A stretch of 64,000 bases of DNA, from the IMG/VR virus record IMGVR_UViG_3300025117_000049, positions 32,828-96,827 of that record; one strand, written 5' to 3'. Under the pieces are notes generated by a model that was not told the origin of the DNA, made no database searches, and saw nothing but the letters and a program-made list of their open reading frames with translations. A program made the position numbers and the translations under genes. Below are positions 4,030-20,600 of this stretch, in pieces. This DNA is from a virus. How positions within the stretch are numbered: position 1 is the stretch's first letter; every line of letters begins with the position of its first letter.

Positions 4030-4136
4030 TTTTTTATGTTTATTGCCTTCGTAGGCCAGATAAGGCAGACCTATTTGATCCAGCTAAAAACCAACCTTTT
4101 TACATAGGTAAGGAATCTATCAGGATAGCCTATTAA
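4026..4136 (+). pseudogene. truncated GIY-YIG homing endonuclease remnant (36 aa)
   Basis: MIFYVYCLRRPDKADLFDPAKNQPFYIGKE aligns with FYLYFLRRPDKIDPLDLSKGQPFYVGKG of ORF 7862. Confidence 0.75.
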
Positions 4137-4149
4137 AAAAAGGAAACAA

Positions 4150-4953
4150 ATGTTATTGATTGATATGAATAATCTATGCATGCGAGAGGCATTCGCCAAG
4201 GCCGGCCTGACCCACCACGGCCGACCCAGCGGAGTCATATATGGGTCACTCCAACAGCTCCGATTGCTTATGGGCCGTTTCCCGGGCGAGATCATATGCT
4301 GCTGGGATGCCCCTCGCAAATCCCTGCGCCGGAGACAATTCTGGGCTGGATACAAGGCTAATCGTGAAGGCAAGGAACCATCAGAGGCTGCTGAGGACGC
4401 ATATCCCCAGATGGTTATGCTGAGGCAAGAACTGCTACCCCGCTTGGGCCTGCCCAACCAATTCCTGCAGGATGGCTATGAAGCGGATGATTTAATAGCC
4501 TATATGGCCAGAGAATCGTTTTATTGGGTTGACGGGCACAGGTTCGTCATTGCCTCTTCGGACAACGACCTGTACCAACTACTGGGCCCACGGATTTCCG
4601 TCTATGATTTGGGGAAAAAAGCCAACTACAGTTGGCAGAATCTGAAAGAAAACCATGGGGTATTGCCGGGCCAATGGGCGGAGGTCAAAGCCATTGCCGG
4701 AGATTCCTCTGATGGGATTGATGGCGTGCCTGGAGTTGGGATCAAGACGGCGGTGAAATATCTTCATGGGCAGGCAGGAGCCAAGGCAGTGGCCAAGGTC
4801 CAGGCCGCTACCGACATTATAGTCCGCAACCGCAAATTGATAATCCTGCCTTGGCCTGGTTGCGATCCTGGTCCGGTTCAGACCTCTCAATTTGATGAGC
4901 GGGAGTTCATGCGGATCTGTGCCGAGTGGGGGATCAGGAGTTTAGATAGATAA
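4150..4953 (+). CDS. 5'-3' exonuclease / flap endonuclease (PolI N-terminal or T5 D15-like)
   Basis: LLID, CWD, YKANR, YEADD, SSDNDLYQL, GDSSDGIDGVPGVGIKTA motifs. Confidence 0.93.
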   Translation: MLLIDMNNLCMREAFAKAGLTHHGRPSGVIYGSLQQLRLLMGRFPGEIICCWDAPRKSLRRRQFWAGYKANREGKEPSEAAEDAYPQMVMLRQELLPRLGLPNQFLQDGYEADDLIAYMARESFYWVDGHRFVIASSDNDLYQLLGPRISVYDLGKKANYSWQNLKENHGVLPGQWAEVKAIAGDSSDGIDGVPGVGIKTAVKYLHGQAGAKAVAKVQAATDIIVRNRKLIILPWPGCDPGPVQTSQFDEREFMRICAEWGIRSLDR

Positions 4954-4954
4954 G

Positions 4955-6472
4955 ATGTCCTCTGCCCAACCCCAACCAACACCCCAGCTCCCCAGTGAAG
5001 GTGAATTACTTCGGGAGTTGTGCAATCGCAGCTTCCATCGCTTCCTCCGGGAGTTCTGGTCTACAATCTGCCATGACCAATTCCAGGACAACTGGCATAT
5101 CCAATATCTCTGCAAAGAACTCCAACAGGTGGCCGAGCGGGTGGCCAACAGGGAACCAAACCCGTTTGATCTGATCATTAATGTCCCGCCTGGCACTACC
5201 AAGAGTATTGTCTGCTCGGTAATGTTCCCGGTCTGGTGCTGGACCAAGTGGCCATGGATGCGTTTCTTGACCTTCAGCTACAACCAGCAGGTGGCCATCA
5301 AGTCTGCCGACGGTTCCAAAAAGATCATTGAGTCAAGACTATTTCAGTCAGTCTACCCGGATATCCGCCTGCGCAAGGGCAAGGAGGGTGTGACTGACTA
5401 TGAGATCAGCATCCTTGGTCAATATGGCTGGGACCCGGCCGGTGGCGGTAGGTTCAGTTCATCCGTGGGTGGTTCAGGCACGGCCTTTCATGGGGACATC
5501 CTGATACCGGACGATCCCCTGAACGCAGAACAATCGTTTAGCTCACAGGAGTTGATGACTACCAACAGGTGGGTGGACCAGACGTTGCCCACACGCAAGA
5601 CGAACAAGGCTGTATCAGCCACTATATGGATTCAGCAGCGGCTTCATGAGATCGACCCGTCTGGCCATTTACTATCCAAAAAGAAATTGAAGATCAAACA
5701 TATCTGCCTGCCGGCCGACATCTCTGATCCATTATATGCCAACCTGGTTAGCCCTCCCGAACTGAAGCAATATTACAAGGACGGCCTGCTGGACCCAGTG
5801 CGTCTGGATCGCCAGACCATTCAGGACCTGGAGGAACGCCTGGGCCAATACGGAGCAGCCGCCCAGCTTGGCCAGAATCCCTCTCCGCCGGAAGGGGGTA
5901 TGTTCAAAGTCGACCGCTTTGTGATGGTTGATCGTATGCCGCCCGATGTTAGCGTGATCAAGACCGTCCGCTACTGGGATAAGGCAGGAACTGATCCAAC
6001 CAAAGAGAAAAACCAGGAGCCCGCCTACACCGTGGGGGTCAAGATGTCTTTGATCGCCAATGGAAAGTACCTGGTGTCGGATGTGGTTCGTGGCCGCTGG
6101 TCGGCTGAGGATCGAGAGGACATGATCCTGGCCACGGCCCAGGCAGACGGCAAGGACGTGGAGGTATGGACTGAGCAGGAGCCCGGTTCTGGAGGAAAGG
6201 AATCAGCTGAATTTACTGTGCGCAACCTGGCTGGGTTCTCCATCAGGGCGGAGCGGCCTGTGGGTAACAAGGTGGCCCGGGCTGATACGTTCTCTGTCCA
6301 GGTGAATCGCTACAATGTCATGCTGCTTAAAGGAGAGTGGAATCAGGAGTTCAAGGGCGAATATGGGTTCTTCCCCAATAGCAAGTTCAAGGATCAGGTG
6401 GATGCTGGGGCTGGGGCGTTTGGTAAGCTGGCGGTGCGCAAGCAGGTTCGGCTGTTGAGTCGGAGTAGATGA
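4955..6472 (+). CDS. terminase large subunit
   Basis: IINVPPGTTKS Walker A, ILIPDDP Walker B, QQRLH, nuclease WDKAG / EQEPG / DQVDA. Confidence 0.95.
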   Translation: MSSAQPQPTPQLPSEGELLRELCNRSFHRFLREFWSTICHDQFQDNWHIQYLCKELQQVAERVANREPNPFDLIINVPPGTTKSIVCSVMFPVWCWTKWPWMRFLTFSYNQQVAIKSADGSKKIIESRLFQSVYPDIRLRKGKEGVTDYEISILGQYGWDPAGGGRFSSSVGGSGTAFHGDILIPDDPLNAEQSFSSQELMTTNRWVDQTLPTRKTNKAVSATIWIQQRLHEIDPSGHLLSKKKLKIKHICLPADISDPLYANLVSPPELKQYYKDGLLDPVRLDRQTIQDLEERLGQYGAAAQLGQNPSPPEGGMFKVDRFVMVDRMPPDVSVIKTVRYWDKAGTDPTKEKNQEPAYTVGVKMSLIANGKYLVSDVVRGRWSAEDREDMILATAQADGKDVEVWTEQEPGSGGKESAEFTVRNLAGFSIRAERPVGNKVARADTFSVQVNRYNVMLLKGEWNQEFKGEYGFFPNSKFKDQVDAGAGAFGKLAVRKQVRLLSRSR

Positions 6473-6490
6473 CATGAAGCGAGGAAAATT

Positions 6491-6715
6491 ATGACCATGT
6501 ATCATGAACCCATATTGGGTAAACCGGGACCGGTAGAAAAACCCATTTGCGTAGTTTGTAGCGGTGTTTTACAACCAAAGATGAAAACAGTTTTTAATCA
6601 TTTCATGGGGCCTCCCATTATTGGACCAGGCAGTCGAGAGCAATATGATACTATCCAAGATGGGTGGACTTGTCAAAAATGTGGACTTCATTATGATTTT
6701 CCTCCTCAGAAATAG
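6491..6715 (+). CDS. hypothetical Zn-ribbon protein
   Basis: CVVC...CQKC; GAGG RBS. Confidence 0.55.
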   Translation: MTMYHEPILGKPGPVEKPICVVCSGVLQPKMKTVFNHFMGPPIIGPGSREQYDTIQDGWTCQKCGLHYDFPPQK

Positions 6716-6736
6716 AAGTTAAGACGAACGATGATT

Positions 6737-6774
6737 TTGGGCCGGGGCCATCAACAACCCCGGCCAATTTTTTT
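6737..6774 (+). terminator. rho-independent terminator
   Basis: GGCCGGGG-N10-CCCCGGCC stem followed by a T-run. Confidence 0.7.
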
Positions 6775-6776
6775 AT

Positions 6777-6815
6777 TTAGGGGTTTTGGCCCGGAATATT
6801 TATAATTAATTCAAC
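6777..6815 (+). promoter_or_regulatory. putative late promoter
   Basis: TTAGGGGTTTTGGCCCGGAATATTTATAATTAATTCAAC; near-identical copies at 13894 and 35599. Confidence 0.7.
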
Positions 6816-6860
6816 AAGAGGGCCGAGCCCAATGAACCCCCCGGATGAACCCTGACTAAG

Positions 6861-7508
6861 ATGGAAGATAAACGATCAGGACTGCATATTTATCGCAGCG
6901 GATATGCAGAATATTCTAATCCTTGCCACAACCCTGCTGGGCCTGGCGGTGGACAGTTCTGTGGGGGTGGGAGTGAGGGCAGGAGAAATTCAAATTCATC
7001 TGAATGGAAGCCATCTATGACTAAGGCCGAGGCTGAGAAATTTATTGAGGGGAGCAAATATACAGACAATGTTTATCATATGACTCTTTCGAAAGATACG
7101 GCCAAATCTATTGCTAAAAACGGGTTTGATCTTGAACGGGTTGTGTATGGACGCATGTGGGGTGATGGTGTTTATGCTGCATTAGATGTCAAGAGCGCCA
7201 ATCTTTATAGACATTCGGGCCGTGTTTCTTTAACAATGAAAATTAAAGTAGAAAATCCATATGTGGTTAAAAATGAAAAAGAATTAAACCATTTGATTTA
7301 TAAATCAGACATAGCAAAAAGAGCTTCACAATTAGAAGGCCCTGGAGTTGGGGCAGGAGCTGCTCTTGCCTTGGCAATGAAAGAAAAAGGGCACGACTCT
7401 TTTATTATTGATATGAGAGGTGGTCCTCGTTATGGAGGCCTTGAACAACGGGGCGGAAATCAGATTGTAGTTTTTGATCCTAAAAAAGTGGTGGTGATTA
7501 AAAAATGA
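6861..7508 (+). CDS. NPCH-tagged ADP-ribosyltransferase-fold protein (PARP/ART-PolyVal-like)
   Basis: VYHMT...SIAKNGFD...WGDGVYAA...A.LY...KVENPY...GHDS...QIVVFDP; N-terminal NPCHNPAGPGGGQFC tag. Confidence 0.75.
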   Translation: MEDKRSGLHIYRSGYAEYSNPCHNPAGPGGGQFCGGGSEGRRNSNSSEWKPSMTKAEAEKFIEGSKYTDNVYHMTLSKDTAKSIAKNGFDLERVVYGRMWGDGVYAALDVKSANLYRHSGRVSLTMKIKVENPYVVKNEKELNHLIYKSDIAKRASQLEGPGVGAGAALALAMKEKGHDSFIIDMRGGPRYGGLEQRGGNQIVVFDPKKVVVIKK

Positions 7509-7708
7509 GCCAGCAAAAAGGCTGTCCAACTTGTACTCATGTCGAAGGAATAACAGGAAAATGCAAAGCCTTTCCTAATGGCATTCCTGTGGTATTCACT
7601 TCTGGCCAATTCCTTCATGACAAGGTAGTTGAAGGACAGGTCGGTGATTTTGTTTATCAAAAAGCCCCTCAACAAACCTATCAAGTATATCGGGTTCCTC
7701 AGGAGTAG
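7505..7708 (+). CDS. small Cys-rich CxxCxH...CxAFPxGIP protein, candidate immunity/partner protein
   Basis: ATGA-coupled to the ART gene; CPTCTH...CKAFPNGIP...H motif. Confidence 0.65.
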   Translation: MSQQKGCPTCTHVEGITGKCKAFPNGIPVVFTSGQFLHDKVVEGQVGDFVYQKAPQQTYQVYRVPQE

Positions 7709-7711
7709 TAT

Positions 7712-7858
7712 ATGGCTGCCAACCCCACCCCATTGAAGAAACCGACCGCCCATGGCGCCCAGGTGTCCAACATTTTGGAACTCATGGCCAACTCCGCCAT
7801 CCTGACCCGTGCCCAGCTCGCCTCCAACCTGGGGCTTGCTTTCGGCGGGAAAATTTGA
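7712..7858 (+). pseudogene. orphaned original portal N-terminus (48 aa)
   Basis: HGAQVSNILELMANSAILTRAQLASNLGLAFGG aligns with portal YGAKVNNIFELAAYSAILGRAQLASVLGQSFEG; AGGAG RBS. Confidence 0.85.
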
Positions 7859-7861
7859 CCC

Positions 7862-8791
7862 ATGGCTAAGAGAATTGCCTATGATACTCCTGCTCCAAAG
7901 CCTCAGTGTCAAGATTCCTTGAGAACAGATTTCTATCTCTATTTCTTGAGGCGGCCCGATAAAATCGATCCTCTTGATCTGTCCAAGGGTCAGCCATTCT
8001 ATGTCGGCAAGGGCTGTAATGGGAGAGTTGGAGGGCATAGAGTCGAAGCGAGAAGCTTATTGCATAAACCTGGTAGAAAATCACATAAAATTAATATCAT
8101 TCATAAACTATGGAAACAAGGTTTAGATTTTCAGGAAGATATTATTCTTAACTGCTTATCAGATGATGATGCTATTGCTTTAGAAATTGCTGCTATCGAA
8201 CAATATGGTCGTAAAGACAATGGCACAGGTATATTGGCCAACCTGACTGATGGTGGAGAGGGAGTATCTGGGCGGTTAGGTTTAATTATGACTTCTGAAG
8301 CAAAAGAGAGAATGAGAGTAGCAAAATTAGGCAAAAAATTACCTCCATTTTCAGAAGGACACAAAGAGAAAATAAGACAAGCCAATTTAAGGGAAAATCT
8401 TTCTCCGGAAACTCTTGAAAAGAGAAGCAAGGCCCATTTAGGAAAAAAACTTACGCCAGAACATGTAGAAAAAATGAGACAAACTCTAAAGGGGCGTAAA
8501 CGTTCTCCAGAAGCAGTTGAAAAAACAAGGCAAGCAAATTTAGGAAGACCTTGCTCTCCTGAGAAAAAAGAGAAGCTAAGACAAGCCAACCTCGGAAAAA
8601 AACATAGTCCAGAAAGAATCGAAAGAAATAGACAAATCCAGCTTATAGTGCAAAATACCCCAGAGGCAATAGAAAGAAATAGACAAGCTCATTTAGGAAA
8701 GAGACACACTCCTGAAACAAAAGAGAAGTTAAGACAGATTCAATTGTTACGCCGCCAGCGAGAAAGGGAGGCCAGGAATGGCAGTCAATAA
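7862..8791 (+). mobile_element. free-standing GIY-YIG homing endonuclease with NUMOD3 repeats
   Basis: FYLY...PFYVGKG..GR...A.ALE..AI..YGR...G.LANLTDGGEG, then repeated S/TPE..EK.RQA.LGK; AT-rich. Confidence 0.88.
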
Positions 8792-10985
8792 AAAGAAAGA
8801 ATATGGAGCTAAGGTGAATAATATTTTTGAATTAGCTGCTTATTCGGCTATTCTTGGAAGAGCACAGTTAGCTTCTGTTTTGGGACAATCTTTTGAAGGG
8901 TCACGCGATATTTACCAAGCACTGGGATACGATACTCAGATTTCATGGCAACAATATGTGGGTCAATATGCTAGACAAGGTTTTGCTAAAGCTGTTATCG
9001 ATCGCCCTGTTGCTTCTACATGGGGTCGAGGCTTTCAGTTAGTCGAGGCTGGCGATGATGAAGAGACACAATTAGAAAAGGCCTGGAAAGACCTGGAAAA
9101 ACGCTTGGGCATGATCTCTATGTTTTCCCGTTTAGATCGTCTTGCAGGATTGGGCACTTATGGCATATTATTGTTAGGTTTGTCTGATGTGTCTACTCCA
9201 CAGGACTTCCGCAAGCCAACAACGGGCCGAAGCCTTCAGCTCAAGTATGTTAAACCATTCTCGGGCATGGCTAACGAAGGGGATGCCCAAATACAGACTT
9301 GGGTTACAGATCCATCTAATGAGCGCTACGGTCGTCCGGAACTATACAGCGTTACCCTTCGCAATCTATCCACTGGCGATTCTCAGATATTGTCTATTCA
9401 TTACAGCCGAGTGATTCATGTAGCCGATGGATTAGGCAGCTCTGAGATCGAAGGTACGCCGCGTCTTGAATCAATTTTTAACAATCTCAAAAACCTAGAG
9501 AAGATCACTGGCGGTTCGGCAGAGATGTACTGGCGTGGTGCCCGTCCCGGCTATGGTCTGGAGGCTGACAAGGACTTCCAGATCACCGATGCGATCCTGG
9601 AGGATTTGCAAGGCCAGCTTGATGAATTCGAGCATAACCTGCGGCGTGTCCTGGCCCTACAGGGCATGAAAGTCAATCCCATGGCCCAGCAGGTGGCGGA
9701 CCCGGCCTCAGCCGTGGACGTGCAGATCCAGGAGATATCGGCCACCACGGGCATTCCCAAGCGCATCCTGACCGGCAGTGAGCGTGGCGAGCTGGCCTCC
9801 AGCCAGGACCGGGAGAACCAAGCGGACTATATCGAGGACCGCCAGCTGAACTTTGCCGAGCTCAGGATCATCAGGGCCACGGTGGACAGGTTCATCGAGT
9901 TGGGCATCCTGCCCCCGGCTTCCACCGAAGAGGGGTATTCCATCCAGTGGCCAGACACCCGGGAGCCCAGCGATAAGGACCGGGCTGATGTGGGCAAGGT
10001 CCGGGCCGATGCCATCAAGAGCTATGCTTCGGCGCCCACCGCAGAGGCAGTCATGCCTATCCAGTCGTTCCTCAGGTTGTGCCTTGGGCTCACAGAGGAT
10101 GAGATTGTTCTGGTTGAAGAGGAAAAGGCGGCTGTCCAGGCAGAGGAGGAAGCTGAGCAGGCTCAGATGACAGACGAAGAGCGAGCCGCCCAGGAAGCTG
10201 AGGAGGCTGCTGCTGAAGCTGAGACTAAAAGACAGCAAAGAGAAGAAGTACCTGTAAACCCTAATCAGCCTGTGGTTCAATCCAATCCATGTCATAATCC
10301 AGCTGGTTCTGCGGGAGGTCAATTCTGTACAACTCCTGGCGGTGGTAGCAACAAGGAGCTTTCTGGCAAAGAAAAAGAATCATTAGTAGCATATCAGCGG
10401 ACAAATTACCCTGAAGTGAATGGACATCTACGTGGAACCATGAATCTTCATCGCGATGATAAGGCTATAATCAATGATTATATTAAGAATCTTGATAGTA
10501 TCTTTAAAAAAGCAAATGAAGTTGAAGTGAATGTTTTTCGTGGTACTGATGCCGAGTTTACAAGAGGTATTTTTGAGAAGACAGGGATCCTAAAGGAATT
10601 GAAAGGAGCAAAAGTTGAAGGCATCACGAATAGTGATAAGCCGCCTGCGGGGTTTTCCACCTGGGATAAATATTTCAATGCAAGATTGAGCGGCACGACC
10701 TTCCAGGACAAAGGATTCACTTCTACATCGAGTAAGGAAAAAGTGACCAAGGGATTTGTAAGCCGTCGCTATGAAGATCCCAGAAACGGGGTGTCTTCTA
10801 TTTGCAACATCCGGGGAACAGCCAAGGCCATTGATATGAATAAGACCACCGGAGACAAGGTGTTCCGTGATCAGCACGAGATGCTTCTGAATCGGGGCAA
10901 TACCTATCGTATAGACAGTGTTAAGGTAGTCCGGGATAACTCGATAAACAAAAGCTATCTGAAGTTTAATGTCTCTATAATCTGA
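8778..10985 (+). CDS. portal protein (DUF1073-like) fused via an acidic linker and NPCH tag to a VIP2/Alt-like ADP-ribosyltransferase
   Basis: portal motifs AKAVIDRP, IHYSRVIH, ISATTGIPKRILTG; C-terminal Y..VNGHLR, VFRG, DKGFTSTS, QHEMLL.RG. Confidence 0.88.
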   Translation: MAVNKKKEYGAKVNNIFELAAYSAILGRAQLASVLGQSFEGSRDIYQALGYDTQISWQQYVGQYARQGFAKAVIDRPVASTWGRGFQLVEAGDDEETQLEKAWKDLEKRLGMISMFSRLDRLAGLGTYGILLLGLSDVSTPQDFRKPTTGRSLQLKYVKPFSGMANEGDAQIQTWVTDPSNERYGRPELYSVTLRNLSTGDSQILSIHYSRVIHVADGLGSSEIEGTPRLESIFNNLKNLEKITGGSAEMYWRGARPGYGLEADKDFQITDAILEDLQGQLDEFEHNLRRVLALQGMKVNPMAQQVADPASAVDVQIQEISATTGIPKRILTGSERGELASSQDRENQADYIEDRQLNFAELRIIRATVDRFIELGILPPASTEEGYSIQWPDTREPSDKDRADVGKVRADAIKSYASAPTAEAVMPIQSFLRLCLGLTEDEIVLVEEEKAAVQAEEEAEQAQMTDEERAAQEAEEAAAEAETKRQQREEVPVNPNQPVVQSNPCHNPAGSAGGQFCTTPGGGSNKELSGKEKESLVAYQRTNYPEVNGHLRGTMNLHRDDKAIINDYIKNLDSIFKKANEVEVNVFRGTDAEFTRGIFEKTGILKELKGAKVEGITNSDKPPAGFSTWDKYFNARLSGTTFQDKGFTSTSSKEKVTKGFVSRRYEDPRNGVSSICNIRGTAKAIDMNKTTGDKVFRDQHEMLLNRGNTYRIDSVKVVRDNSINKSYLKFNVSII

Positions 10986-10993
10986 GGTCATAA

Positions 10994-11125
10994 ATGCCTA
11001 ATTCTAACCAAAAAGATAAGTTTAGCTGGAAAGGCGGTGATGCGGAGATTATCTCTGTGCCTAAAGAATTGACTGAAGAAGAATATGATAAAAAAGCAGC
11101 TAAGGAAAAAGAAAAACCGGAATGA
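10994..11125 (+). CDS. 43 aa peptide after the portal-ART (candidate ART inhibitor)
   Basis: MPNSNQKDKFSWKGGDAEII...; GAGG RBS; same AT-rich composition as the ART cassette; below the ORF-track cutoff. Confidence 0.6.
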   Translation: MPNSNQKDKFSWKGGDAEIISVPKELTEEEYDKKAAKEKEKPE

Positions 11126-11301
11126 CCGCCACCGTCCTCCCCATCAAACCCAACTCCCACACCCATGAACGCCTGCGCCGCCAACGCCAGGAGGCCAGGG
11201 ATCGCATTATCGCTAAGATTGGCATGCGCATGGAGGATTCTCCGCTGTTTGAAGAGGAACTGCGCATGATGGCCTATGAAGAGAGCTTGAAATCCAGATG
11301 A
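11122..11301 (+). CDS. hypothetical 59 aa protein
   Basis: ATGA overlaps at both ends (with 11125 and 11298). Confidence 0.6.
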   Translation: MTATVLPIKPNSHTHERLRRQRQEARDRIIAKIGMRMEDSPLFEEELRMMAYEESLKSR

Positions 11302-13868
11302 AAACCCTGCCTTTCAAATCGCTCCAGTCCACTACCTACAAATCCCTTGGGATGCGGCCGGCCAAGAAATTGACTGTGTTATCCAACCCCTGCCATGATG
11401 AGCAAGGGAGGTTTTGTAATACGACAAGTCAGAGCGGCGAAAGCACTGTTTCAAAATCAGAAAAAGAACTTATGTCAAAACTTAAAAGAGCAAAGGATCA
11501 TGGGAAGAAAGATAAGATATTTTATGATGCAAATTTAAGCAAGGAAGATAGTGATCGCCTGGTTATGGCTATGATTACTACGGTTCCTAAAGGTCAGTAT
11601 AAACTACATAGTAGAGAATATGGCGTAAATATTCGTGATGTCATTTATGACATGTATGGAAATATGCCATCTAATATTCTATCTGAATCAGTGTTATTAG
11701 GGGCAAGCATAAGATACCCCAAGAAAGTTCGGGCTACATTTACTCATGACATGGATAAACTCACTGTCTTATCAGAAAATGTTCTATCTGCCCACACCCA
11801 GCCAAAGCCCAAACCCGGCTCCAAGCCCCGCCTCGTCAAAATCAACGGCCTGCTGGCCCACCAGGCATCATCCAGGATTGACCCCACCAGGACCACAGGC
11901 CTCAGGAACCGTTGGGCTGCCGAGATGGGCCGCCGGTTTACTGCCCTGAGACGGCTGATATGGAAGACCATCGTTGATGACGATTGCTTCGGGATCGGTC
12001 CTGCCTATGAGATGTATCGGCCGGCTGCGTATAGCAACCCTTGCCATGATGAACAAGGGAGGTTTTGTTCGACTGGTGGAGGGAGCGACCAAGCTGGTGG
12101 TATCATGAAGATGTTCCATGGTACTTCATCTGATTACATTGATTCAATTAAAGAACATGGATTAATTCCAGGCAAGACCCAAGGAGGAGATTCTTGGGCT
12201 GCTAAACAGGGATGGAATGATTGTATCTCTGAAATAGGAAGTCAGAAAGTCTCTGTTTACATGACCAATAAATTAAGGATAGCAGATCAATATGCTAGGT
12301 ATGCCGCTGAAATGTCTGGTGGGGTTCCAGTAATATTAGAGGTCGTAGTCCCAAAGTCGTTTATTGGAAAGCTGTCAAAAGACGAAAAAGATTCTGATGC
12401 GATTAAATTCAATGGAAAAATTAAGCCTGATTGGATAACCAGAATTATTAGTCAAAGTGAAGTTAGCCCTCCTCTTGAAGGTCCATCTATAGTAATCCGC
12501 AAAAAGAGTAGAATGATATCATTAAGCCAAGACCAATCGAAGGTTTTTTATATTGCCACCATTGTAGATAACCAACCTGTCTCCACCACCCACACCCTAT
12601 CCACCCCAATAATCCACATTAAATTCGACTTCCCTCGTCTGGAGGACAAGATTCCAGCCTTCATGCAATGGCTCCAGCAACAGCAAGACGAGGGCATACT
12701 GGAGCTGGTCACCCTGCCCCGCATGGGCCAATCCCTGGGCGAACCGTGGACGAATATGTTTGTTAAGGATAGCTACGAGCGCGGGGTCATCCGTGCCCGT
12801 GAGCAATTGATGTCCGCCGGTTATGGCACCCCTGGTCTAGGGGCTGGGGAGTTGCCGTTGCTGGGCTTACCAGGTATGACCTCCGGAGTGCTTGCAAACC
12901 CCTTCCACGTCGATCGTCTCGCCTCAGTGTACCTTCGGGCCTACGATGGCCTTAAAGGGATTTCAAATGCAATGTCTATGCAGATATCGCATGTGCTGGC
13001 CCAGGGCCTTGCTGACGGGGACAATCCTATCACTCTGGCCAAGAAGATGAACTACGTCATCTCAGGCATGGGCAAGGATATGGGTATCACCGATTCGTTG
13101 GGCAGGTTCATCCCAGCCGAGCGCCGGGCCAAGATGCTGGCTAGGACGGAGGTGATAAGAAGTCATGCACAAGCCCAATTGCAGGAATTTAAGGTATGGG
13201 GTGTAGCCGGAGTCGATGTGGTTGCTGAATGGGTAACGGCCGGCTTCAATGTCTGTCCTCAATGTCAGGATAAATCCCGGCAAGGACCATACACGATTGA
13301 GCAAGCATGGAACCTGATACCTTTCCATCCCCATTGCCGATGTTGTTGGGTCGCAAAACCTAGGAATGAACTTTATGTCCATTCCAACCCCTGCCATGAT
13401 GAGCGGGGCCGGTTTTGTTCGACTGGTGGCGGAAGCGGAGGGGCAACCGTCAGGACATTCTTAACTCCCGAAACTGCAGAAGAATTCCTAAATAGTGATG
13501 CTCGTGATGTAGGCATATTTAATTTGTATTCTGATCGTTGGCTGCGTAGCTCAGACGGCGAGGCCAAGGAATATGCCTATGAGGTGGCCAGGAACAGCGT
13601 GATGTTGCAGAGGGCACTTCAGGTTGAACACTTCAAATCCCAAGACCTTCCGGAGCAGGTTGATTTATATCGTGTAGGGCCTGCCCATGGAGGACAAGGG
13701 TCAGTGGTTTCTTTTTGGCCCAGTAAGAGTGCCGCTGAATCATATCAAGAAGGATTTAGGATCGAATCGATTCATAAATATCAAGCACCATTGGATAGCG
13801 TGGTTCCAAGCAGGAGTGGTGCTGGAGAATTATGGGCCAATGTTAATGAGATAAGACAGGTTGATTAA
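11298..13868 (+). CDS. MuF / SPP1 gp7-like minor head protein carrying three NPCH-tagged inserted domains
   Basis: DPTRT, RAKMLARTEVIRSH, VCPQC...IPFHPHCRCCW MuF motifs; inserts include a Tpt1/KptA-like ART (FHGT...SIKEHGL.P...VYMT) and an R-S-E-like ART (LYRVG...VVSFW...GEL). Confidence 0.88.
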   Translation: MKTLPFKSLQSTTYKSLGMRPAKKLTVLSNPCHDEQGRFCNTTSQSGESTVSKSEKELMSKLKRAKDHGKKDKIFYDANLSKEDSDRLVMAMITTVPKGQYKLHSREYGVNIRDVIYDMYGNMPSNILSESVLLGASIRYPKKVRATFTHDMDKLTVLSENVLSAHTQPKPKPGSKPRLVKINGLLAHQASSRIDPTRTTGLRNRWAAEMGRRFTALRRLIWKTIVDDDCFGIGPAYEMYRPAAYSNPCHDEQGRFCSTGGGSDQAGGIMKMFHGTSSDYIDSIKEHGLIPGKTQGGDSWAAKQGWNDCISEIGSQKVSVYMTNKLRIADQYARYAAEMSGGVPVILEVVVPKSFIGKLSKDEKDSDAIKFNGKIKPDWITRIISQSEVSPPLEGPSIVIRKKSRMISLSQDQSKVFYIATIVDNQPVSTTHTLSTPIIHIKFDFPRLEDKIPAFMQWLQQQQDEGILELVTLPRMGQSLGEPWTNMFVKDSYERGVIRAREQLMSAGYGTPGLGAGELPLLGLPGMTSGVLANPFHVDRLASVYLRAYDGLKGISNAMSMQISHVLAQGLADGDNPITLAKKMNYVISGMGKDMGITDSLGRFIPAERRAKMLARTEVIRSHAQAQLQEFKVWGVAGVDVVAEWVTAGFNVCPQCQDKSRQGPYTIEQAWNLIPFHPHCRCCWVAKPRNELYVHSNPCHDERGRFCSTGGGSGGATVRTFLTPETAEEFLNSDARDVGIFNLYSDRWLRSSDGEAKEYAYEVARNSVMLQRALQVEHFKSQDLPEQVDLYRVGPAHGGQGSVVSFWPSKSAAESYQEGFRIESIHKYQAPLDSVVPSRSGAGELWANVNEIRQVD

Positions 13869-13893
13869 CAACCACCCTCCCAAAAAATAAATA

Positions 13894-13932
13894 TTAGGGG
13901 TTTTGGGCCAGAATATTTATATTTAATTCAAC
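13894..13932 (+). promoter_or_regulatory. putative late promoter
   Basis: TTAGGGGTTTTGGGCCAGAATATTTATATTTAATTCAAC. Confidence 0.7.
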
Positions 13933-14151
13933 ATGGTAATTAGCAATCACAAGGACATGAAATTGACACCAGAAACCTGCAAGCACCAGGACCTGCTCTG
14001 TACGGAATGTCCAGACAAACTTTCGTGCGAGCCTTTGGCCCTGGAATTGCAGTCGCCGGTCTTTGGTGGCCGGGTTGATCCCAGGCCCCGCCCACTCCCG
14101 GCCTTCCTGAAAGGCGCCTCTAAATCCGTAAGGGCCTCATATGGCTATTGA
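13933..14151 (+). CDS. hypothetical protein
   Basis: Cys-containing ORF after the promoter motif; true start may be the internal MKLT. Confidence 0.45.
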   Translation: MVISNHKDMKLTPETCKHQDLLCTECPDKLSCEPLALELQSPVFGGRVDPRPRPLPAFLKGASKSVRASYGY

Positions 14152-14353
14152 CCTGACATGCAAGTGCACATACGGCGATCAAGGCAGGATTGAAAGCCTG
14201 ACGGTCGATTTCGGCCAACAGATGGCCATGGCTGAGGCCCAGGAGCTGGCGGACCTGCTGGAAATGACGGCGGTCGGCTGGGCTAATTGCAAGGGGTGTG
14301 TGAATGATCAATGTGACAAGCATTCCGGTGGAGCTGCTCCATCTGTCCATTGA
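14141..14353 (+). CDS. hypothetical protein
   Basis: overlap-coupled small ORF. Confidence 0.45.
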   Translation: MAIDLTCKCTYGDQGRIESLTVDFGQQMAMAEAQELADLLEMTAVGWANCKGCVNDQCDKHSGGAAPSVH

Positions 14354-14657
14354 CGTGATGCATGGCGGAATCCTTTACCGGAAGGAATTTTCCTACGGTG
14401 AGGATCTGATGGTGTATACCAGGACCTCGGCCATGACCCCTGAGACCGAGGAGGATGGCTGGAGCACCAAAGGCTGGTATCGGCTCTCCGGTCAGGACGG
14501 CAACCCGGTCATGATTAGCGATCCTGGGTTCCTGGTGCAGCTTGCTAATGCGGCTGCAAGGAAAGGCTGGCAGGTTGAATGGAACCCGGCTTTCAAGCCA
14601 GTTAAGGATTTGCCCCAGGGATTTTGTTTTCACAAGAACGCCATGGAGAATTTTTAA
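14304..14657 (+). CDS. hypothetical protein
   Basis: 117 aa ORF ending just before the protease start. Confidence 0.5.
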   Translation: MINVTSIPVELLHLSIDVMHGGILYRKEFSYGEDLMVYTRTSAMTPETEEDGWSTKGWYRLSGQDGNPVMISDPGFLVQLANAAARKGWQVEWNPAFKPVKDLPQGFCFHKNAMENF

Positions 14658-14659
14658 TC

Positions 14660-17600
14660 ATGCCATTCAAAATAGAGGATGTGGAGCGCCACAATCGGGG
14701 ATTATCAGATGCCAAGAAGGCCCAATGGGTGGCAGTGGCCAATTCTGTATTGAAGAAATGCATAGATGATGGTGGGGATGATGCTTCCTGTGCCCCCAAG
14801 GCCATACGGCAGGCCAACGGAGTGGTGGCTGTCCACGAAGATGTGCAGGTAGATTACAACCCATGTCATAATCCTTCTGGACCTGGTGGTGGGCAGTTTT
14901 GTGGGGGGAATGTTGAGTCATCTTATCCAAAAACTGTAGATGAAATAAAATCTACTCAATACGGAAAAGGGTTTTTTATTGCTCCTGATGGAGATTTGAT
15001 AGACATATCTTCAGAATTTGGAGGAGGGACTAATGATCATGTTGGCACAATTGGAATGGATAAATATGCAAAAAAATTAGGATTGCCTCAAGAAGATATT
15101 TCTAAAATGGAAAAGATTGTTGATAAATTAAATAAAATGGGAGATACTTTTAGTTCAAAATTTGAAAAATTATCAGATAAGCAAAATGAAATGGCTACAA
15201 ATATGATGTTAAAGGCTTTTGAAAAAGGGGCTTTGAGAGTACGCCTTTTTAAGGGGGTTGTTGCAATAGAAGGACATAATATTGCTTTATCTAAAATTCA
15301 AAATCTTTTGGGAGACAACAAAATTCCATCAGATAGAAAGGCATTATATATGATAGAAGGAGCTGCAGGTCGGGGTGCCTGGGGAGTACAAACTAATTTG
15401 TCTAATTTATTATTGTCTAATAGATGGAATGAAATAACAACTAATATGGCTGTCCATCTGAATGCTAATGCCAACTACACTATCCGCAAGGAATTTCTTC
15501 AAGGGAAAGAGCACATCATTGTCCCAATAATTATGATGCGAGAAGGCGTCCACAGTGGCTCTCACGGCCCTATTCTGCATCTGGCTGAGGAATTGGGCAA
15601 GTTTCCTGGTGCTTGGGATGGTATCCCGGTGTCTATCCAACATCCCCAAGAAGATGGAATGCATGTATCGGCCAACCAGCCGCACATCCTGGATGAGTTC
15701 GTAGTCGGCCGGGTATTCAACACCATGATGGACGGTCAGAAGCTCAAGGCCGAAGCTTGGCTGGACCCAGTGGTACTCAAGAACATCTCTCCAGAGGCCA
15801 TGGAATACATCATGGAAGGCAAGCCCTTGGAGGTCAGCGTCGGGGTTTTCACTGATGAGGATATTCGTGCCGGGGATTATGAGGGCAAACATTATGAGGC
15901 CGTGGCCAGAAACCACCGCCCAGATCACCTTGCTTTGCTTCCTGGTGCGGTCGGGGCCTGCTCATGGTCGGATGGATGCGGTGTGCGGACTCATCAGGAG
16001 GGGTTAGACACCAATACAAGGCATGAACCCACTTATAATTCATGGAGAAATATGATTCAGCGTTGTACTAATCCAAATTCTCCAGATTATAAATATTATG
16101 GCAAAAAAGGGGTCAAGGTTGTTCAGCGATGGCTTGATTCCTTTGATAATTTTTTGGAAGATATGGGCCAGCGCCCTGAAGGGAAGACAATTAATAGGAA
16201 AAACAGAAAGGGCGATTATTCTAAACAGAATTGTGAATGGGCGACTTCAAAAAAGCAAAATAATAGGGAAAACCATTCGTATGGAGAGCCAAGTATGCAA
16301 ACTAATGCCATTAAATTTGAGGCCATCGAATCCATCCCCTGGACCAAGTCCACCTTGGCGGATTTCGGCAAGGGCAGCAACTGGTCCACCATGGACACTG
16401 CCGACAAATCGGACATTGCCAATCATTTCCTCATTGGTGATGATGCGGCTGCCAACTTTGGTGAGCTGATGTTCCCGGTGGTCAATCCCAAGTCCGGCAA
16501 GCTGAATGAACAGGCCCTGCGGGCGGTCATCGGCGGGCGGGGAGCCCAAGCCAACATCACATCAGCCCAGAGGATCAGTGCCCGCCGCCAAGCATACCGG
16601 CTGCTCAACAGCGAATTTGATGCCAAGCTGGATGTTCCGTCGACCCTGGCCGCCGACATTGCTGTCCATGAAGACGGTGGCCTCAAGGAGCTGGCCCGCC
16701 TGGGATTCTCCATCAATGAAATAGGGGCTCAAAATCAGCAGGATATTGAAGATACATGGGGCTCAAACACATATAAGAGAGAAGCGGTACTTTCTGCTGC
16801 TCTGGGCGCGTTAAATGTAAGCCAAAAAAGTCTAGATCTTGGAGCAAAGAGGGCAACCGAAAGGGTATATAATGCAACAAGATTAGCAAGAACCTCCCAA
16901 GATCACAGACAGGCTTCCATGGCACATAAAGATGCTGGCCAGGCTCATAGAAAAAGTGGCGGAGGAGCTAAAGAGGCCATTCCATTTCATAGAACCGCAG
17001 AGAGATTGCATGGAGAGCTGGCAAGGAGTATGGGAATGACGGGCTTCTCCATCAATGAAATCGGCTACAGTGAATTGAGAAACATCATCCAGGCCAAGCT
17101 GGACCGCATGGATGATGACGCCAAGGCCCATTACCTGGAAGACATCTACGATGGCTACATCATCTATCGGGTCGAACCCAGGGGTCAAGATAGACCTGTA
17201 TCTCTAGAGACAAAGAATCTTTTCAAGCGAAACTACACGGCAGCCGATGACGGCACCGTCGAGTTCACCGGTGAATCCATGCCGGTCATAAAGCGGGTCA
17301 GTTATGACCCTGCATCACAGCGAGGAGGTATGAATAACATGGCAGATAAACCCTGCTGCGAAGCAAAGGTTCAGATGCTGATCGAGTCCGGTGCCTATGC
17401 CGAGACTGACCGCGACCGGCTTCTGACCATGGAGGAGGCTGACATCGATGTATTGGCTGCCGGTGTTACAGCGAAAGCCGCCCTGCAGACCAAGATCGAC
17501 GAAATGGCCGCCGAGATGAAGGCCATGAAGGACAAGTTGGCCACCATGCAGTCTAACGCCGACACTCAGACTACCCGGGACAAGGCCATCGAGGTCCTGA

Positions 17601-17902
17601 AGGAAGACCTGGGCGACAAGGACAAGTTCCTGGCCCTGGCCCCAAAGGAAATTCGCTCCACCCTGGAGCACGGCCTGCGCCTCCACCAGGAAGAGCGGAG
17701 CCGGCAGATCACCCATATCATGGCCAACACTAATGAGGGCGTCTACACCAAGGGGCGTCTGGAGGCCATGGACGATCAGGATCTGTCCTTCCTGGCCCAG
17801 GCCATCAAAGCCCCAGTTGACTATTCCGGCCAGGCCCCGACCCCGCAGGTCAACCGCGGCAGTCACGAGGCCCAAGCAGTCTATCCCCCGGGCGTGGAAT
17901 AA
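14660..17902 (+). CDS. prohead protease/scaffold polyprotein: ChaB-like N-terminus, NPCH-tagged insert, DUF2213-type protease, HNH-like domain, further inserts, coiled-coil scaffold
   Basis: protease motifs AWDGIPVSIQHP, VGRVFN, LEVSVG, NHRPDHLALLPGAVGACS..DGCG; immediately upstream of the decoration and capsid genes. Confidence 0.85.
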   Translation: MPFKIEDVERHNRGLSDAKKAQWVAVANSVLKKCIDDGGDDASCAPKAIRQANGVVAVHEDVQVDYNPCHNPSGPGGGQFCGGNVESSYPKTVDEIKSTQYGKGFFIAPDGDLIDISSEFGGGTNDHVGTIGMDKYAKKLGLPQEDISKMEKIVDKLNKMGDTFSSKFEKLSDKQNEMATNMMLKAFEKGALRVRLFKGVVAIEGHNIALSKIQNLLGDNKIPSDRKALYMIEGAAGRGAWGVQTNLSNLLLSNRWNEITTNMAVHLNANANYTIRKEFLQGKEHIIVPIIMMREGVHSGSHGPILHLAEELGKFPGAWDGIPVSIQHPQEDGMHVSANQPHILDEFVVGRVFNTMMDGQKLKAEAWLDPVVLKNISPEAMEYIMEGKPLEVSVGVFTDEDIRAGDYEGKHYEAVARNHRPDHLALLPGAVGACSWSDGCGVRTHQEGLDTNTRHEPTYNSWRNMIQRCTNPNSPDYKYYGKKGVKVVQRWLDSFDNFLEDMGQRPEGKTINRKNRKGDYSKQNCEWATSKKQNNRENHSYGEPSMQTNAIKFEAIESIPWTKSTLADFGKGSNWSTMDTADKSDIANHFLIGDDAAANFGELMFPVVNPKSGKLNEQALRAVIGGRGAQANITSAQRISARRQAYRLLNSEFDAKLDVPSTLAADIAVHEDGGLKELARLGFSINEIGAQNQQDIEDTWGSNTYKREAVLSAALGALNVSQKSLDLGAKRATERVYNATRLARTSQDHRQASMAHKDAGQAHRKSGGGAKEAIPFHRTAERLHGELARSMGMTGFSINEIGYSELRNIIQAKLDRMDDDAKAHYLEDIYDGYIIYRVEPRGQDRPVSLETKNLFKRNYTAADDGTVEFTGESMPVIKRVSYDPASQRGGMNNMADKPCCEAKVQMLIESGAYAETDRDRLLTMEEADIDVLAAGVTAKAALQTKIDEMAAEMKAMKDKLATMQSNADTQTTRDKAIEVLKEDLGDKDKFLALAPKEIRSTLEHGLRLHQEERSRQITHIMANTNEGVYTKGRLEAMDDQDLSFLAQAIKAPVDYSGQAPTPQVNRGSHEAQAVYPPGVE

Positions 17903-17929
17903 AGCCGGGGATTAAAGGAGGAAATACTT

Positions 17930-18394
17930 ATGGCTTACAACACCATTCTGTTGAAGGGCGAGAATGCCAACTTCGAGGAGATTGCTGCCAATGCGGCTAT
18001 CACCCCGGGCATGCTCGTCGAGGAAATGACCACCGGCCTGCTCCGGGCGCATGCCATCCGCAATGGTAATGCGGCCGCCATGTTCGCTATGGAGAGCGAG
18101 TACGAAGGTAAGGGGGTCGATGACAACTACGCCGCCGGAGAAGAGGTCCGGGTCTGGCACCCCAAGAAAGGGGATCAGGTCAACGCCCTGCTGGCCGACG
18201 GTGAGTCCGTGGCTATCGGCGATATGCTGGGCTCCAACGGCGATGGCTACCTGAAGGAAATCAAAGGTGGTGACTCTGCTACTGAGGACCTGCCGGCATC
18301 CATCGTGGCCAAAGCCAAAGAGGCCGTGGACCGTAGCACTAGCTCCGGCGGCGACACCAACACCACCGGCCGCATCGTGGTCGAGATTATCTAA
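17930..18394 (+). CDS. capsid decoration/cement protein
   Basis: AITPGMLVE, YAAGEEV, L.SNGDGYLK; lies between scaffold and capsid genes. Confidence 0.75.
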   Translation: MAYNTILLKGENANFEEIAANAAITPGMLVEEMTTGLLRAHAIRNGNAAAMFAMESEYEGKGVDDNYAAGEEVRVWHPKKGDQVNALLADGESVAIGDMLGSNGDGYLKEIKGGDSATEDLPASIVAKAKEAVDRSTSSGGDTNTTGRIVVEII

Positions 18395-18424
18395 GGCCAC
18401 CAAGTGAAAGGAGGAACATAAGAT

Positions 18425-19531
18425 ATGCAAGCAAATGTCGACTATTTTGGCAAGGGCATGGTCCAAGGTCCGCTGGCGAGCTACATCGCCGAGCAGGGTC
18501 GGATCAACCCGGCCTTCATGCGCCCCATCCTGGGTGAGGATGGCCATACCTATTTCACGGTCTATAAGGGCGGTGACCCCAAGAAAAAAGAGAGCTTCCA
18601 TGTATATCGGCGTGACGAACTCCAGCACCTGGGCATCCAGGTCTACGGCACCCTGCGCCGGGACGAATGGAAGTACCTTGACCAGGCTGTCCAGCAGGCA
18701 GCCCATGTGCGCCTCGGCGGCATCCAGGACCTGATCGACAACAACCTGGTCTACAATCTCACCAATGCCATGGGCACCACCGTCCTGGAATACCACTCCA
18801 TCGGTGAGGCCATGGAAGCTGAAGTGAGTATGGATCCGGCAGTGCGCAGCCGCAAGGACCGGCTCAACTACCAGACCCATTACCTGCCCATCCCGGTGAT
18901 CCACAGCGACTTCGACATCAGCTCCCGTTCCCTGGAATCGAGTCGGCGCCTGGGCAATCCCCTGGATGTCGACGCCGTGACCGAGGCCACCCGGGTGGTG
19001 AACGAGAAGCTGGAGCACATGCTGTTCAATGTCGACCAGACCCCGTTCCAGTTTGGCGGCGGCTACATCTACTCCTATCTGGATCACCCAAATCGGAACC
19101 AGTTCCCACTGGGGACGGCATGGTCCGCAGACACCGGCGCCAACATCCTGGCCGATGTCCTGGCCATGATCCAGATGTCCATTGACGCCCGCCACTACGG
19201 CCCGTGGATGCTTTACATTCCCACTGCCTACCAGACGGTCATGGGCGAGGACTACACCGCCGGCTATCCCAAGTCCATCCGCCAGCGCATTCTGGAGGTC
19301 GAGGGCATCAAGGGGATCAAGGTCATCGACACCCTGCCGGCTAACAACGTAGTCCTGGTGGAGATGCAGACGTCAACCGTACGCCTGGTCCAGGGCATGG
19401 CGACTCAGGTGGTCCAGTGGCAGGTCGGTTCCAGCCTGAGCCCGACGGAATACAAGGTGCTTCGCATTGCGGTTCCTCAAGTGCGGGTAGATCAGTCCGG
19501 CCGTAGCGGCATCGTCCACGGCTCCGTGTAA
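18425..19531 (+). CDS. major capsid protein (HK97 fold, encapsulin/Linocin_M18-like branch)
   Basis: TLRRDEWKYLDQAV, LPIPVIHSDF.I..R.L..SRR.G.PLD, GPWMLYIP; strongly biased codons; strong RBS. Confidence 0.9.
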   Translation: MQANVDYFGKGMVQGPLASYIAEQGRINPAFMRPILGEDGHTYFTVYKGGDPKKKESFHVYRRDELQHLGIQVYGTLRRDEWKYLDQAVQQAAHVRLGGIQDLIDNNLVYNLTNAMGTTVLEYHSIGEAMEAEVSMDPAVRSRKDRLNYQTHYLPIPVIHSDFDISSRSLESSRRLGNPLDVDAVTEATRVVNEKLEHMLFNVDQTPFQFGGGYIYSYLDHPNRNQFPLGTAWSADTGANILADVLAMIQMSIDARHYGPWMLYIPTAYQTVMGEDYTAGYPKSIRQRILEVEGIKGIKVIDTLPANNVVLVEMQTSTVRLVQGMATQVVQWQVGSSLSPTEYKVLRIAVPQVRVDQSGRSGIVHGSV

Positions 19532-19587
19532 TTCCAGACGAAAGGCTAATCATGCCCCGTCTGACTTAAATATCGAGGTAATCCGAT

Positions 19588-19923
19588 ATGGCTAACCAAG
19601 CAAGAGAAGGCGAGATCAGGTGGAGGAAGATTTCTGGCACCCTGACTCTCAAGGACAAGACAGTCATCAAACCTGGCCAGACATTCATGGCCAGGCCTGA
19701 GGACATTCCTAAGGTCTTCCGAGATACTGTTGTGCCAGTCAACCCAGAGGACCTGCTGGGTTCGGAAACATCTATGTCTCCGGTTGAGCTCGAGCCGCCC
19801 AGCTACACCATCAAGTCTTGCACCCCTGGACGGTATAACGTCCTGGATGGCCAGGGTAAGGCGGTCAACGAGAAGCCCATGTCCCAGGACGACGCCAAGC
19901 GACTGGTGGAGAACCTGGGCTGA
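19588..19923 (+). CDS. hypothetical head-associated protein
   Basis: directly after the capsid gene; GAGG RBS. Confidence 0.6.
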   Translation: MANQAREGEIRWRKISGTLTLKDKTVIKPGQTFMARPEDIPKVFRDTVVPVNPEDLLGSETSMSPVELEPPSYTIKSCTPGRYNVLDGQGKAVNEKPMSQDDAKRLVENLG

Positions 19924-20600
19924 TGTCCTGGGCCGCCCCCAGGATGTGGGATGGCGGCCGTTGCTTCATCATCGGCGGCGGCCCGTCCATGCCTAGGCAG
20001 TTCAGCATCCCGGATGAGATTGTTGCTGGAGTCCGATCCGGTGAGGTTGGTCCCGATGCCTATTCCCCGTTCATGGAGCCCATCCATGGGGAGCATGTCA
20101 TTGGAGTGAACAATGCTTACCAGATCGGCACCTGGATCGATGTCTGCCTGTTTGGGGACTGTAGCTGGTATCTGGTATACAGGGAACAACTGGCCAAATG
20201 GCCGAATCTTAAGGTCGGTTGCTGCCATGGCAGTCCTGACTACCTGGACCCGGATGGAATCAAGTACCTGCCGAGGGATAAGGCCAAGAAGGTGGGCATT
20301 GGAATCAATCCGGGTAAGCTGTCCTGGGGATACAATTCCGGGACGGCAGCCATCAATCTGGCTGCCCATTTCGGGGTTCGCCAGATCATCCTCCTTGGAT
20401 TCGATATGTCCCATCCTGATGCCCAGACAACTCACTGGCATAAGGGACATGGCCATCCCAGGAAATCTTACAAGCGATTTCTCAGGGGATTCCCGGCTAT
20501 CGCAGCTGATGCCGCTGCCCTGGGAATCGAAATATTGAATGCAAGTCATAATAGTTCCATTGCCCAATTTCGCAAGGTGTTGCTGGAGGAATTGCTATGA
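19923..20600 (+). CDS. DUF115/Maf-like nucleotide-sugar transferase
   Basis: CFIIGGGPS, VIGVNNA, NSGTAAINLA.HFG...IILLGFD. Confidence 0.7.
   Translation: MSWAAPRMWDGGRCFIIGGGPSMPRQFSIPDEIVAGVRSGEVGPDAYSPFMEPIHGEHVIGVNNAYQIGTWIDVCLFGDCSWYLVYREQLAKWPNLKVGCCHGSPDYLDPDGIKYLPRDKAKKVGIGINPGKLSWGYNSGTAAINLAAHFGVRQIILLGFDMSHPDAQTTHWHKGHGHPRKSYKRFLRGFPAIAADAAALGIEILNASHNSSIAQFRKVLLEELL

Follow-up and report, generated by a model that had tools for sequence, protein, structure and literature searches.

When foreign DNA enters a phage head gene in frame, do identical peptides on both sides of the insert mean that resident sequence was duplicated, and are such duplicates kept as protease sites? The question is raised by a stretch of viral DNA of 64,000 nucleotides, here called the window, which covers bases 32828-96827 of the 96,827-bp IMG/VR virus record IMGVR_UViG_3300025117_000049, rated complete. 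Its head-assembly module encodes a portal, a MuF-family protein and a protease-scaffold polyprotein, and all three genes hold inserts. The guanine-plus-cytosine content (GC) of the inserts is 0.35-0.46 and hence below the 0.52-0.61 of the conserved cores, which is why the extra segments are regarded as foreign acquisitions. In a sequence-only reading, three inserts had been described as bracketed by duplicated peptides, namely KLTVLS in the MuF gene as well as GFSINEIG and AVH in the scaffold gene, and all three pairs were found at these places when the sequence was re-read. The general rule drawn from them, namely a duplicated target peptide wherever a cassette has arrived, holds for GFSINEIG only and fails for KLTVLS. 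Only GFSINEIG is present once at the empty site, as expected of a target site.

A duplicated linker motif around the His-rich insert

The carrier of the insert between the GFSINEIG copies is the protease-scaffold polyprotein, for which the following features need to be considered.

14660-17902, plus strand: protease-scaffold polyprotein of 1080 residues, counted from the ATG at 14660; PF09979, DUF2213 protease domain
16688-16726, plus strand: ELAR-L-GFSINEIG, copy 1, in a stretch of low predicted local distance difference test score (pLDDT) in both models
16727-17014, plus strand: His-rich insert, foreign according to GC and helical according to AlphaFold
17015-17065, plus strand: ELAR-SMGMT-GFSINEIG, copy 2, with the first helix of the scaffold beta module right behind it

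The polyprotein is ordered into an N-domain, cargo insert A, the DUF2213 protease, an HNH-associated insert, a middle domain, the His-rich insert, a beta module and a helical scaffold tail; the domains were mapped with the AlphaFold model of an insert-free relative, P0005 (679 residues). All three inserts fall onto inter-domain linkers of P0005 that are predicted to be disordered with pLDDT below 50 (residues 59-69, 243-255 and 376-393), and their positions are explained by the permissive nature of these linkers. Resident sequence was duplicated by the third scaffold insertion only.

The GFSINEIG copies at 16703-16726 and 17042-17065 agree in 21 of 24 bases. They were reported as a direct repeat of 24 nt with 92% identity and a spacing of 339 nt, the sole peptide pair that was detected as a repeat at DNA level. 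Upstream of each copy there is a further match, ELAR/GAGCTGGC. The duplicated stretch thus consists of ELAR plus GFSINEIG, i.e. 12 codons, with an indel of five codons in copy 2, where S-M-G-M-T replaces L. An 8-mer repeat in the scaffold protein was not obtained in any of the residue shuffles (0/2000), which speaks strongly for a non-random pair. The empty site is seen in P0005, which is also the closest insert-free relative (83% identity in the best segment). It reads ...ELAR-L-GFSINEIG-Y-S-E-L..., i.e. with the single copy expected of an insert-free homologue, and its local sequence corresponds letter for letter to that of the window minus one copy and the insert (339 bp), copy 1 then joining Y-S-E-L directly. 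At this site, L001, an IMG/VR contig, matches P0005 in length. Judged by this comparison, in which the breakpoints were defined by protein alignment, the GFSINEIG pair is a real duplication of resident sequence.

The two copies differ at 6 bases in 5 of the 12 codons, and all differences are synonymous. By our own count, the duplicated codons comprise approximately 27 non-synonymous sites, and the synonymous change is near saturation; under these conditions, drift alone should have altered several residues. So the peptide appears to have been selected in both copies, or copy 2 may have come from a diverged donor in which the peptide was equally constrained. The earlier claim that the duplicate is kept at protein level thus stands for GFSINEIG.

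Among 40 aligned relatives, down to approximately 35% identity, the motif columns hold N in 23, E/D in 25, G/S in 36 and Y/H/F in 36 sequences, which gives the family consensus [IVL]-N-[ED]-x-[GS]-[YHF] just upstream of the scaffold beta module. In the model of P0005, the motif (residues 388-395) closes the linker 376-393 and leads directly into a helix of the beta module (396-409). The window segment was modelled as well, and each of its two copies was placed within a low-pLDDT stretch or at the border of one. Another insertion is found at this position in P0006 and P0017; it consists of an additional, diverged beta module and likewise has the motif on either side. The beta module, consisting of one helix and four strands, was also found tandemly duplicated or in place of the middle domain in several relatives (P0006, P0017, P0022, P0023), in which each copy opens with its own version of [IVL]-N-[ED]-x-[GS].

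The insert itself is helical and His-rich, as described before: AlphaFold predicts a long helix and a second helix with pLDDT 50-77. The GC of 16727-17041 is 0.46 compared to 0.57-0.59 in the flanks. It has no Pfam match at an expectation value (E) of up to 1, no Atlas match and no paralogue in the phage's own genome; the search for its origin in a set of 5.8 billion proteins revealed no longer protein, and its likeness to the insert of P0013 was not significant (BLAST E 0.08-1.5). Several kinds of insertion were considered and rejected. A tandem duplication of the downstream module is contradicted by lacking sequence similarity and different GC, and a transposon by the absence of terminal inverted repeats at the insert ends and of any family match in the insert. 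The insert begins with A-Q-N and finishes with M-T-G, i.e. it lacks the intein signature (Cys/Ser/Thr at the start, His-Asn plus Cys/Ser/Thr at the end), and for a self-splicing intron no Rfam match was found in 6000-19000.

Cleavage, structure or by-product

Why should both copies have been kept? The reading that we prefer, with a confidence somewhat short of even, is that they serve as putative sites of the phage's own gp21-fold prohead protease. The best Foldseek matches of the protease domain were chains A-C of T4 gp21 (5JBL; probability 1.0, template modelling (TM) score 0.54-0.55), followed by herpesvirus assemblins, and its His, Ser and Asp columns are invariant across the 40 relatives. 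As modelled, the domain has the T4 gp21/assemblin fold. Cutting after Glu is the rule among the characterised proteases with this fold, in T4 gp21 within I/L-x-E. GFSINEIG contains I-N-E within a predicted low-pLDDT linker and thereby combines an aliphatic residue at P3, Glu at P1 and a segment predicted to be accessible, which makes it a plausible candidate cleavage site. Moreover, A-x-E is the sequence after which the gp21-like protease of SPN3US cuts, with a preference for V or A at P4 (PMC10052503). In the insert-free relatives, the protease domain is preceded by V-A-A-N-E, which would also fit a gp21-class site.

The course of events is seen as follows. Low-GC foreign DNA for a helical, His-rich segment entered the protease-scaffold gene inside the conserved, disordered linker motif. 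The insertion event copied approximately 12 resident codons (ELAR..GFSINEIG), with a net gain of 339 bp and the motif on both sides of the insert, and both copies have stayed unchanged at protein level ever since. Inside the procapsid, the prohead protease might then cut after the Glu of I-N-E in both copies, and this double cut would excise the His-rich segment, while the flanking modules keep their native ends. Given a nested scaffold start (see below), the long polyprotein form could act as a low-copy vehicle that brings the protease and the inserted domains into the procapsid.

It must be mentioned that several observations weigh against cleavage. The Foldseek E-value of the gp21 match is weak (5e-3). 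P0007 and L001 have L-S-V-L-L-M-S in place of the motif, which is hence not indispensable. The top-conserved columns, [GS]-[YHF]-x-[ED], represent the helix start and lie mostly beyond the duplicated part, while the N-E columns are moderately conserved. Finally, the listed titles and abstracts of papers mentioning DUF2213 contained nothing on protease specificity or cleavage.

A wider version of the cleavage reading is possible but doubtful. According to it, the DUF2213 protease would read a short x-N/H-E linker motif, and scaffold, MuF protein and portal would be vehicles of foreign domains that are freed inside the capsid by flanking sites. GFSINEIG would be the clearest trace left by selection for cargo that can be excised; further examples would be A-V-H-E / W-N-E on the two sides of insert A and R-N-E / V-N-E on those of the C-terminal MuF cargo. 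As weaker support for the preferred reading, N-E-[ILM] occurs 6 times in the four head proteins compared to 1.4 expected (P approximately 0.004), but the pattern was picked after the data were seen and the duplicated site was counted twice. Four of these six sites are at cassette junctions, namely before the tag of the MuF C-terminal cargo, at the right end of insert A and in both GFSINEIG copies. MuF inserts 1 and 2 as well as the HNH-like insert are without a matching site on both sides, which weighs against the preferred reading as well.

The preferred reading competes with a second one, which we consider unlikely but worth weighing: the duplicated motif could be kept for structure or docking, either as a cap or lead-in of the helix or as a linear motif that binds capsid protein, portal or protease. 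An insertion that splits the motif would then survive only if each flank keeps its own copy. The strongest conservation, [GS]-[YHF]-x-[ED]-[IL], coincides with the start of helix 396-409 in P0005, a helix follows a few residues past each copy in the window model, and every beta-module copy of P0006 and P0017 has its own motif. However, the foreign sequence behind copy 1 is without the Y-x-E-L helix start, and still this copy shows zero amino-acid change at heavy synonymous divergence. The motif itself is modelled as low-confidence coil.

An improbable third explanation is that the duplication is a neutral by-product of the arrival of the insert, and the second copy has no role. Possible sources are illegitimate recombination, copy-choice between two genomes and a diverged donor from which a version of the flank was imported, too. 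There is a comparable event in the same genome, a stub of the portal N-terminus upstream of a GIY-YIG endonuclease gene, and the SMGMT before copy 2 resembles T-M-K-M-A before the second motif in P0006, which hints at a tandem-arranged donor. Nevertheless, 6 synonymous versus 0 non-synonymous differences over 12 codons do not look neutral; a donor origin would explain the codon differences but still implies that the peptide was constrained in both lineages.

The KLTVLS and AVH pairs

The pair in the MuF gene is of a different nature. It concerns these features:

11298-13868, plus strand: MuF-family head protein of 856 residues with two internal cargo inserts and one C-terminal; PF04233, PHROG 758
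11352-11800, plus strand: MuF insert 1, a low-GC cassette of leader, NPCH tag, cargo domain of approximately 100 residues and tail
11367-11384, plus strand: KLTVLS copy 1, in the cassette leader right before the NPCH tag; the leader recurs in relatives
11757-11774, plus strand: KLTVLS copy 2, conserved last strand of the cargo domain, aligning with 21 homologues

A 6-mer repeat in the MuF protein appeared in 15/2000 residue shuffles, in a run in which the tag mask took away the S of copy 1, and this speaks moderately for a non-random pair. The copies differ at 5/18 bases and all changes are synonymous, as the sequence-only reading had noticed. DNA alignment with L001, the MuF core of which is 92% identical to the window, placed the breakpoints of insert 1 after ..CCCTTGGG and before CCAAAGCCC (between ...S-L-G and P-K-P-K-P-G). 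Both copies lie inside the inserted low-GC DNA (0.38 in 11385-11804 versus 0.61 in the adjacent core), and the empty site of L001 has no KLTVLS at protein or DNA level, whereas one copy had been expected there. Hence, KLTVLS had to be given up as a target duplication.

Each copy has a source of its own. The inserted DNA opens with ATG and M-R-P-A-K-K-L-T-V-L-S, followed by the tag, which gives the impression of an in-frame fusion with a gene that once stood alone. The same leader stands before the tag in P0086 (K-K-L-T-A-L-S) and P0050 (K-K-V-L-S-V-L-S), which have other cargos in the same MuF slot and no second copy of KLTVLS. Copy 2 belongs to the cargo fold. A HMMER scan of 1.84 billion representatives revealed 45 relatives of the cargo-1 domain, many of them free-standing with approximately 110 residues, some inside polyvalent-type proteins with InPase, LPD3 or DarA_N. 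In the alignment, D-K-L-T-V-L falls on the conserved C-terminus of this family, ...F-T-H-D-[LM]-D-[KAS]-[IV]-[TE]-[IL]-..., which is the exact end point of several members. From these alignments, the two copies are concluded to have separate ancestries and the match of leader and last strand to be a coincidence; the synonymous differences are explained by independent origin and not by selection after duplication, so the claimed retention at protein level does not apply here.

P0050, P0086 and 11352-11800 of the window share the leader (M-R-P-x-K-K-...) and a His/Ser/Thr-rich tail around three different cargos; the N-terminal MuF slot seems to have been made once, with cargos then swapped within it. 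The [IL]-S-T-H-S motif in the tail after N-terminal MuF cargos was considered as a second bracket and not used, because it is partly native MuF N-terminus (cf. P0058).

For the AVH pair, the relevant features are:

14828-14842, plus strand: AVHED at the left junction of insert A; not resident, insert-free relatives have V-V-A-A-N-E/D-M
14831-15445, plus strand: scaffold insert A, with an NPCH tag at 14858-14902 and a cargo domain of approximately 190 residues; GC 0.35
15446-15457, plus strand: M-A-V-H, with which the protease domain natively begins; contains the right-hand AVH
16661-16675, plus strand: second AVHED, resident; P0005 and P0009 have A-V-H-D/N, P0007 and P0008 A-V-N-E

Insert A falls in the P0005 linker 59-69 and is missing from 45/45 scaffold homologues other than the window's own. 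AVH is found at 14828, 15449 and 16661, the longer AVHED at 14828 and 16661. The shuffle comparison was uninformative for this pair: a 5-mer repeat such as AVHED was reached in 681/2000 shuffles, which is not significant, and 3-mer repeats such as AVH should turn up in all of them. The insert-free P0005 and P0007 read ...N-G-V-V-A-A-N-E/D-M-[AS]-V-H-L... with one M-A/S-V-H. The Met of this peptide is conserved family-wide, and the sequences of some relatives (P0014, P0015) start with it or slightly upstream of it. M-A-V-H is hence regarded as the natural beginning of the protease domain, in front of which a small domain has been fused. None of the insert-free relatives has an equivalent of the left-hand AVHED, a duplication could not be reconstructed at the left junction, and three residues have no statistical weight. 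At codon level, the three AVH copies are almost the same (GCTGTCCAC, GCTGTCCAT, GCTGTCCAT), which, also after comparison with the L001 DNA, could be due to microhomology at the junction or to plain chance. In terms of sequence, the AVH pair is a match of three residues between new junction sequence and the native protease N-terminus.

The general model, in which every cassette duplicates its target peptide on insertion and each of the three pairs represents two protease sites, can draw on the three pairs being where they were described, the rarity of the KLTVLS 6-mer in shuffles and the near-identical AVH triplets, but it is very improbable. The empty MuF site has no KLTVLS, copy 2 is integral to the cargo fold throughout its family, P0086 and P0050 have other cargos but no duplicate in this slot, and MuF insert 2 is without any bracket, as are the HNH-like insert and the terminal cargos.

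Carriers, relatives and known systems

The remaining features of the module are:

8778-10985: portal, Phage_portal_3 with a C-terminal ADP-ribosyltransferase domain
16004-16294, plus strand: HNH-like insert, in frame between protease and middle domains; PHROG 3377/8790/374, E 1e-31 to 5e-34
17324-17350, plus strand: candidate nested start read from the DNA, GAGGAGG followed by two in-frame ATG codons

The HNH-like insert resembles phage HNH endonucleases in their DNA-binding part and lacks the nuclease motif. It falls in the P0005 linker 243-255, is missing from P0005-P0012 and has no flanking duplication. The same kind of HNH-associated domain is found in another scaffold linker, near residue 60, in P0016. 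A (K/E)-G-G..M pattern at the position of the nested start is conserved across the family (approximately 40 relatives). From the sequence, GAGGAGG plus ATG is probably the nested start of the helical scaffold tail, as in lambda C/Nu3.

Upstream of the portal, the portal N-terminus is encoded a second time, with other codons, by a stub of approximately 45 codons that ends in a stop (window 7650-7800). The stub is closely followed by the GIY-YIG endonuclease gene (7862-8791), and the full portal restarts at 8778; stub and restart represent a gene-level bracketing duplication made by a mobile endonuclease. Before its tag (10130-10250), the portal has a Glu/Ala-rich tail with many A-x-E triplets, which is present in the cargo-free portal of L001 as well. 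If the protease specificity were giant-phage-like, this tail would be cut repeatedly and the ADP-ribosyltransferase released.

The Cys/His tag (N-P-C-H ... G-x-F-C, then a Gly-rich linker) is present in six copies that head extra domains and sit in the head proteins and in a small open reading frame at 6861-7508. The cargo domain of this frame (weak ART-PolyVal match) recurs at 6260-6860 of L001 (weak PARP-like match); it is a free-standing tagged frame in the window and the C-terminal MuF cargo in L001. The C-terminal MuF cargo of the window, in turn, occupies the N-terminal slot of P0086, P0056 and P0052. N-P-C-H can be replaced by other junction tags (G-N-F-G-H-A-G-R-P-G..G-G-S, P-R-D-x-x-G-R-F-A-S..G-G-G and N-P-N/Y-H-D-x-x-G-R-F), which were found in P0053, P0057 and P0061, in L006 at 3636-5366 and 5985-6689, and in P0013 and P0040. 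They have the common core H/R-D..G-R-F/P..G-G-G, for which we know of no described function.

Relatives of the locus were found in metagenome-derived sequences, but no close one among deposited phage genomes. A megablast search of window 8000-20000 against 50,697 phage records gave no match, and the sole tblastn match among deposited phage genomes was the protease core with less than 40% identity. A large protein collection contained 46 scaffold and 18 MuF homologues, including the window's own proteins; the scaffold homologues mostly have 600-700 residues and insert-free MuF relatives 311-542. L002 represents a minimal version with a MuF protein of 311 and a protease-scaffold of 537 residues. 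In the clusters at 90% identity, every full-length member is near-identical to the window proteins, inserts included, and hence uninformative here. One MuF variant in these clusters diverges completely past residue 680, which looks like a frameshifted reading.

The MuF assignment is based on PF04233 (E 5e-5, below the gathering score) and PHROG 758 'head morphogenesis' (E 8e-21). A MuF domain is here combined with variable effector domains, as in MuF polymorphic toxins, and relatives carry different cargos at the same junctions; among the evidence for cargo families, the PARP-like match is weak (E 4e-3). In MuF polymorphic toxins and polyvalent proteins, MuF and portal domains are likewise fused to swappable effectors, presumably injected along with the DNA (PMC5576092; PMC5512222), and further proteins combine the cargo-1 domain with InPase, LPD3 and DarA_N. 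However, those fusions are mostly C-terminal or serial, whereas here cargos also interrupt the carrier and the protease-scaffold is a carrier, too. The text of the MuF toxin paper contains no mention of cleavage, linkers or junctions, and no description of junction duplications was found.

For packaged cargo, T4 is the closest parallel. Non-structural proteins including an ADP-ribosyltransferase (IPI-III, Alt) are taken into the T4 prohead and processed by gp21, a protease of the same fold (PMC9958956), and I-N-E fits the I/L-x-E pattern of T4. The T4 cargo consists of separate proteins with an N-terminal targeting peptide of approximately 10 residues, whereas here it is spliced into portal, MuF protein and protease-scaffold, and one insert stands between two putative sites. 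The giant-phage proteases SPN3US gp245 and phiKZ gp175 are gp21-like and remove propeptides after A-x-E (PMC10052503), similar to V-V-A-A-N-E before the protease domain in the insert-free relatives. The protease of the window belongs to the DUF2213 family, however, and the giant phages remove N-terminal propeptides and not internal segments.

The arrangement of protease and scaffold in one frame, with an internal ribosome-binding site and ATG (17324-17350, predicted here), is shared with lambda C/Nu3 and Mu I/Z. The nested protease-scaffold genes of lambda and Mu are not known to hold foreign inserts. One insert between direct repeats of resident sequence, which is single-copy at the empty site, also recalls the target-site duplication of transposons. 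But the repeat has 24-36 nt with an indel of 15 nt inside and is diverged, there are no terminal inverted repeats and no transposase, and 1/3 inserts in the scaffold gene has such a repeat.

Effector domains on MuF and portal proteins (PMC5576092; PMC5512222) and packaged, protease-processed cargo in T4 (PMC9958956) are established. New are the protease-scaffold polyprotein as a carrier, the insertion into linkers and one insert with a conserved linker motif on either side, both copies apparently selected. The locus teaches that exact peptide repeats around inserts can arise without duplication, and an empty-site comparison is needed before they are interpreted. It also provides a concrete case of a foreign segment in a protease-scaffold between two motif copies, apparently under selection, that fit the specificity class of same-fold proteases. 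If cleavage at these sites is true, GFSINEIG would be the first substrate motif for DUF2213 proteases, and the scaffold gene would offer a natural design for cut-out cargo slots in capsids.

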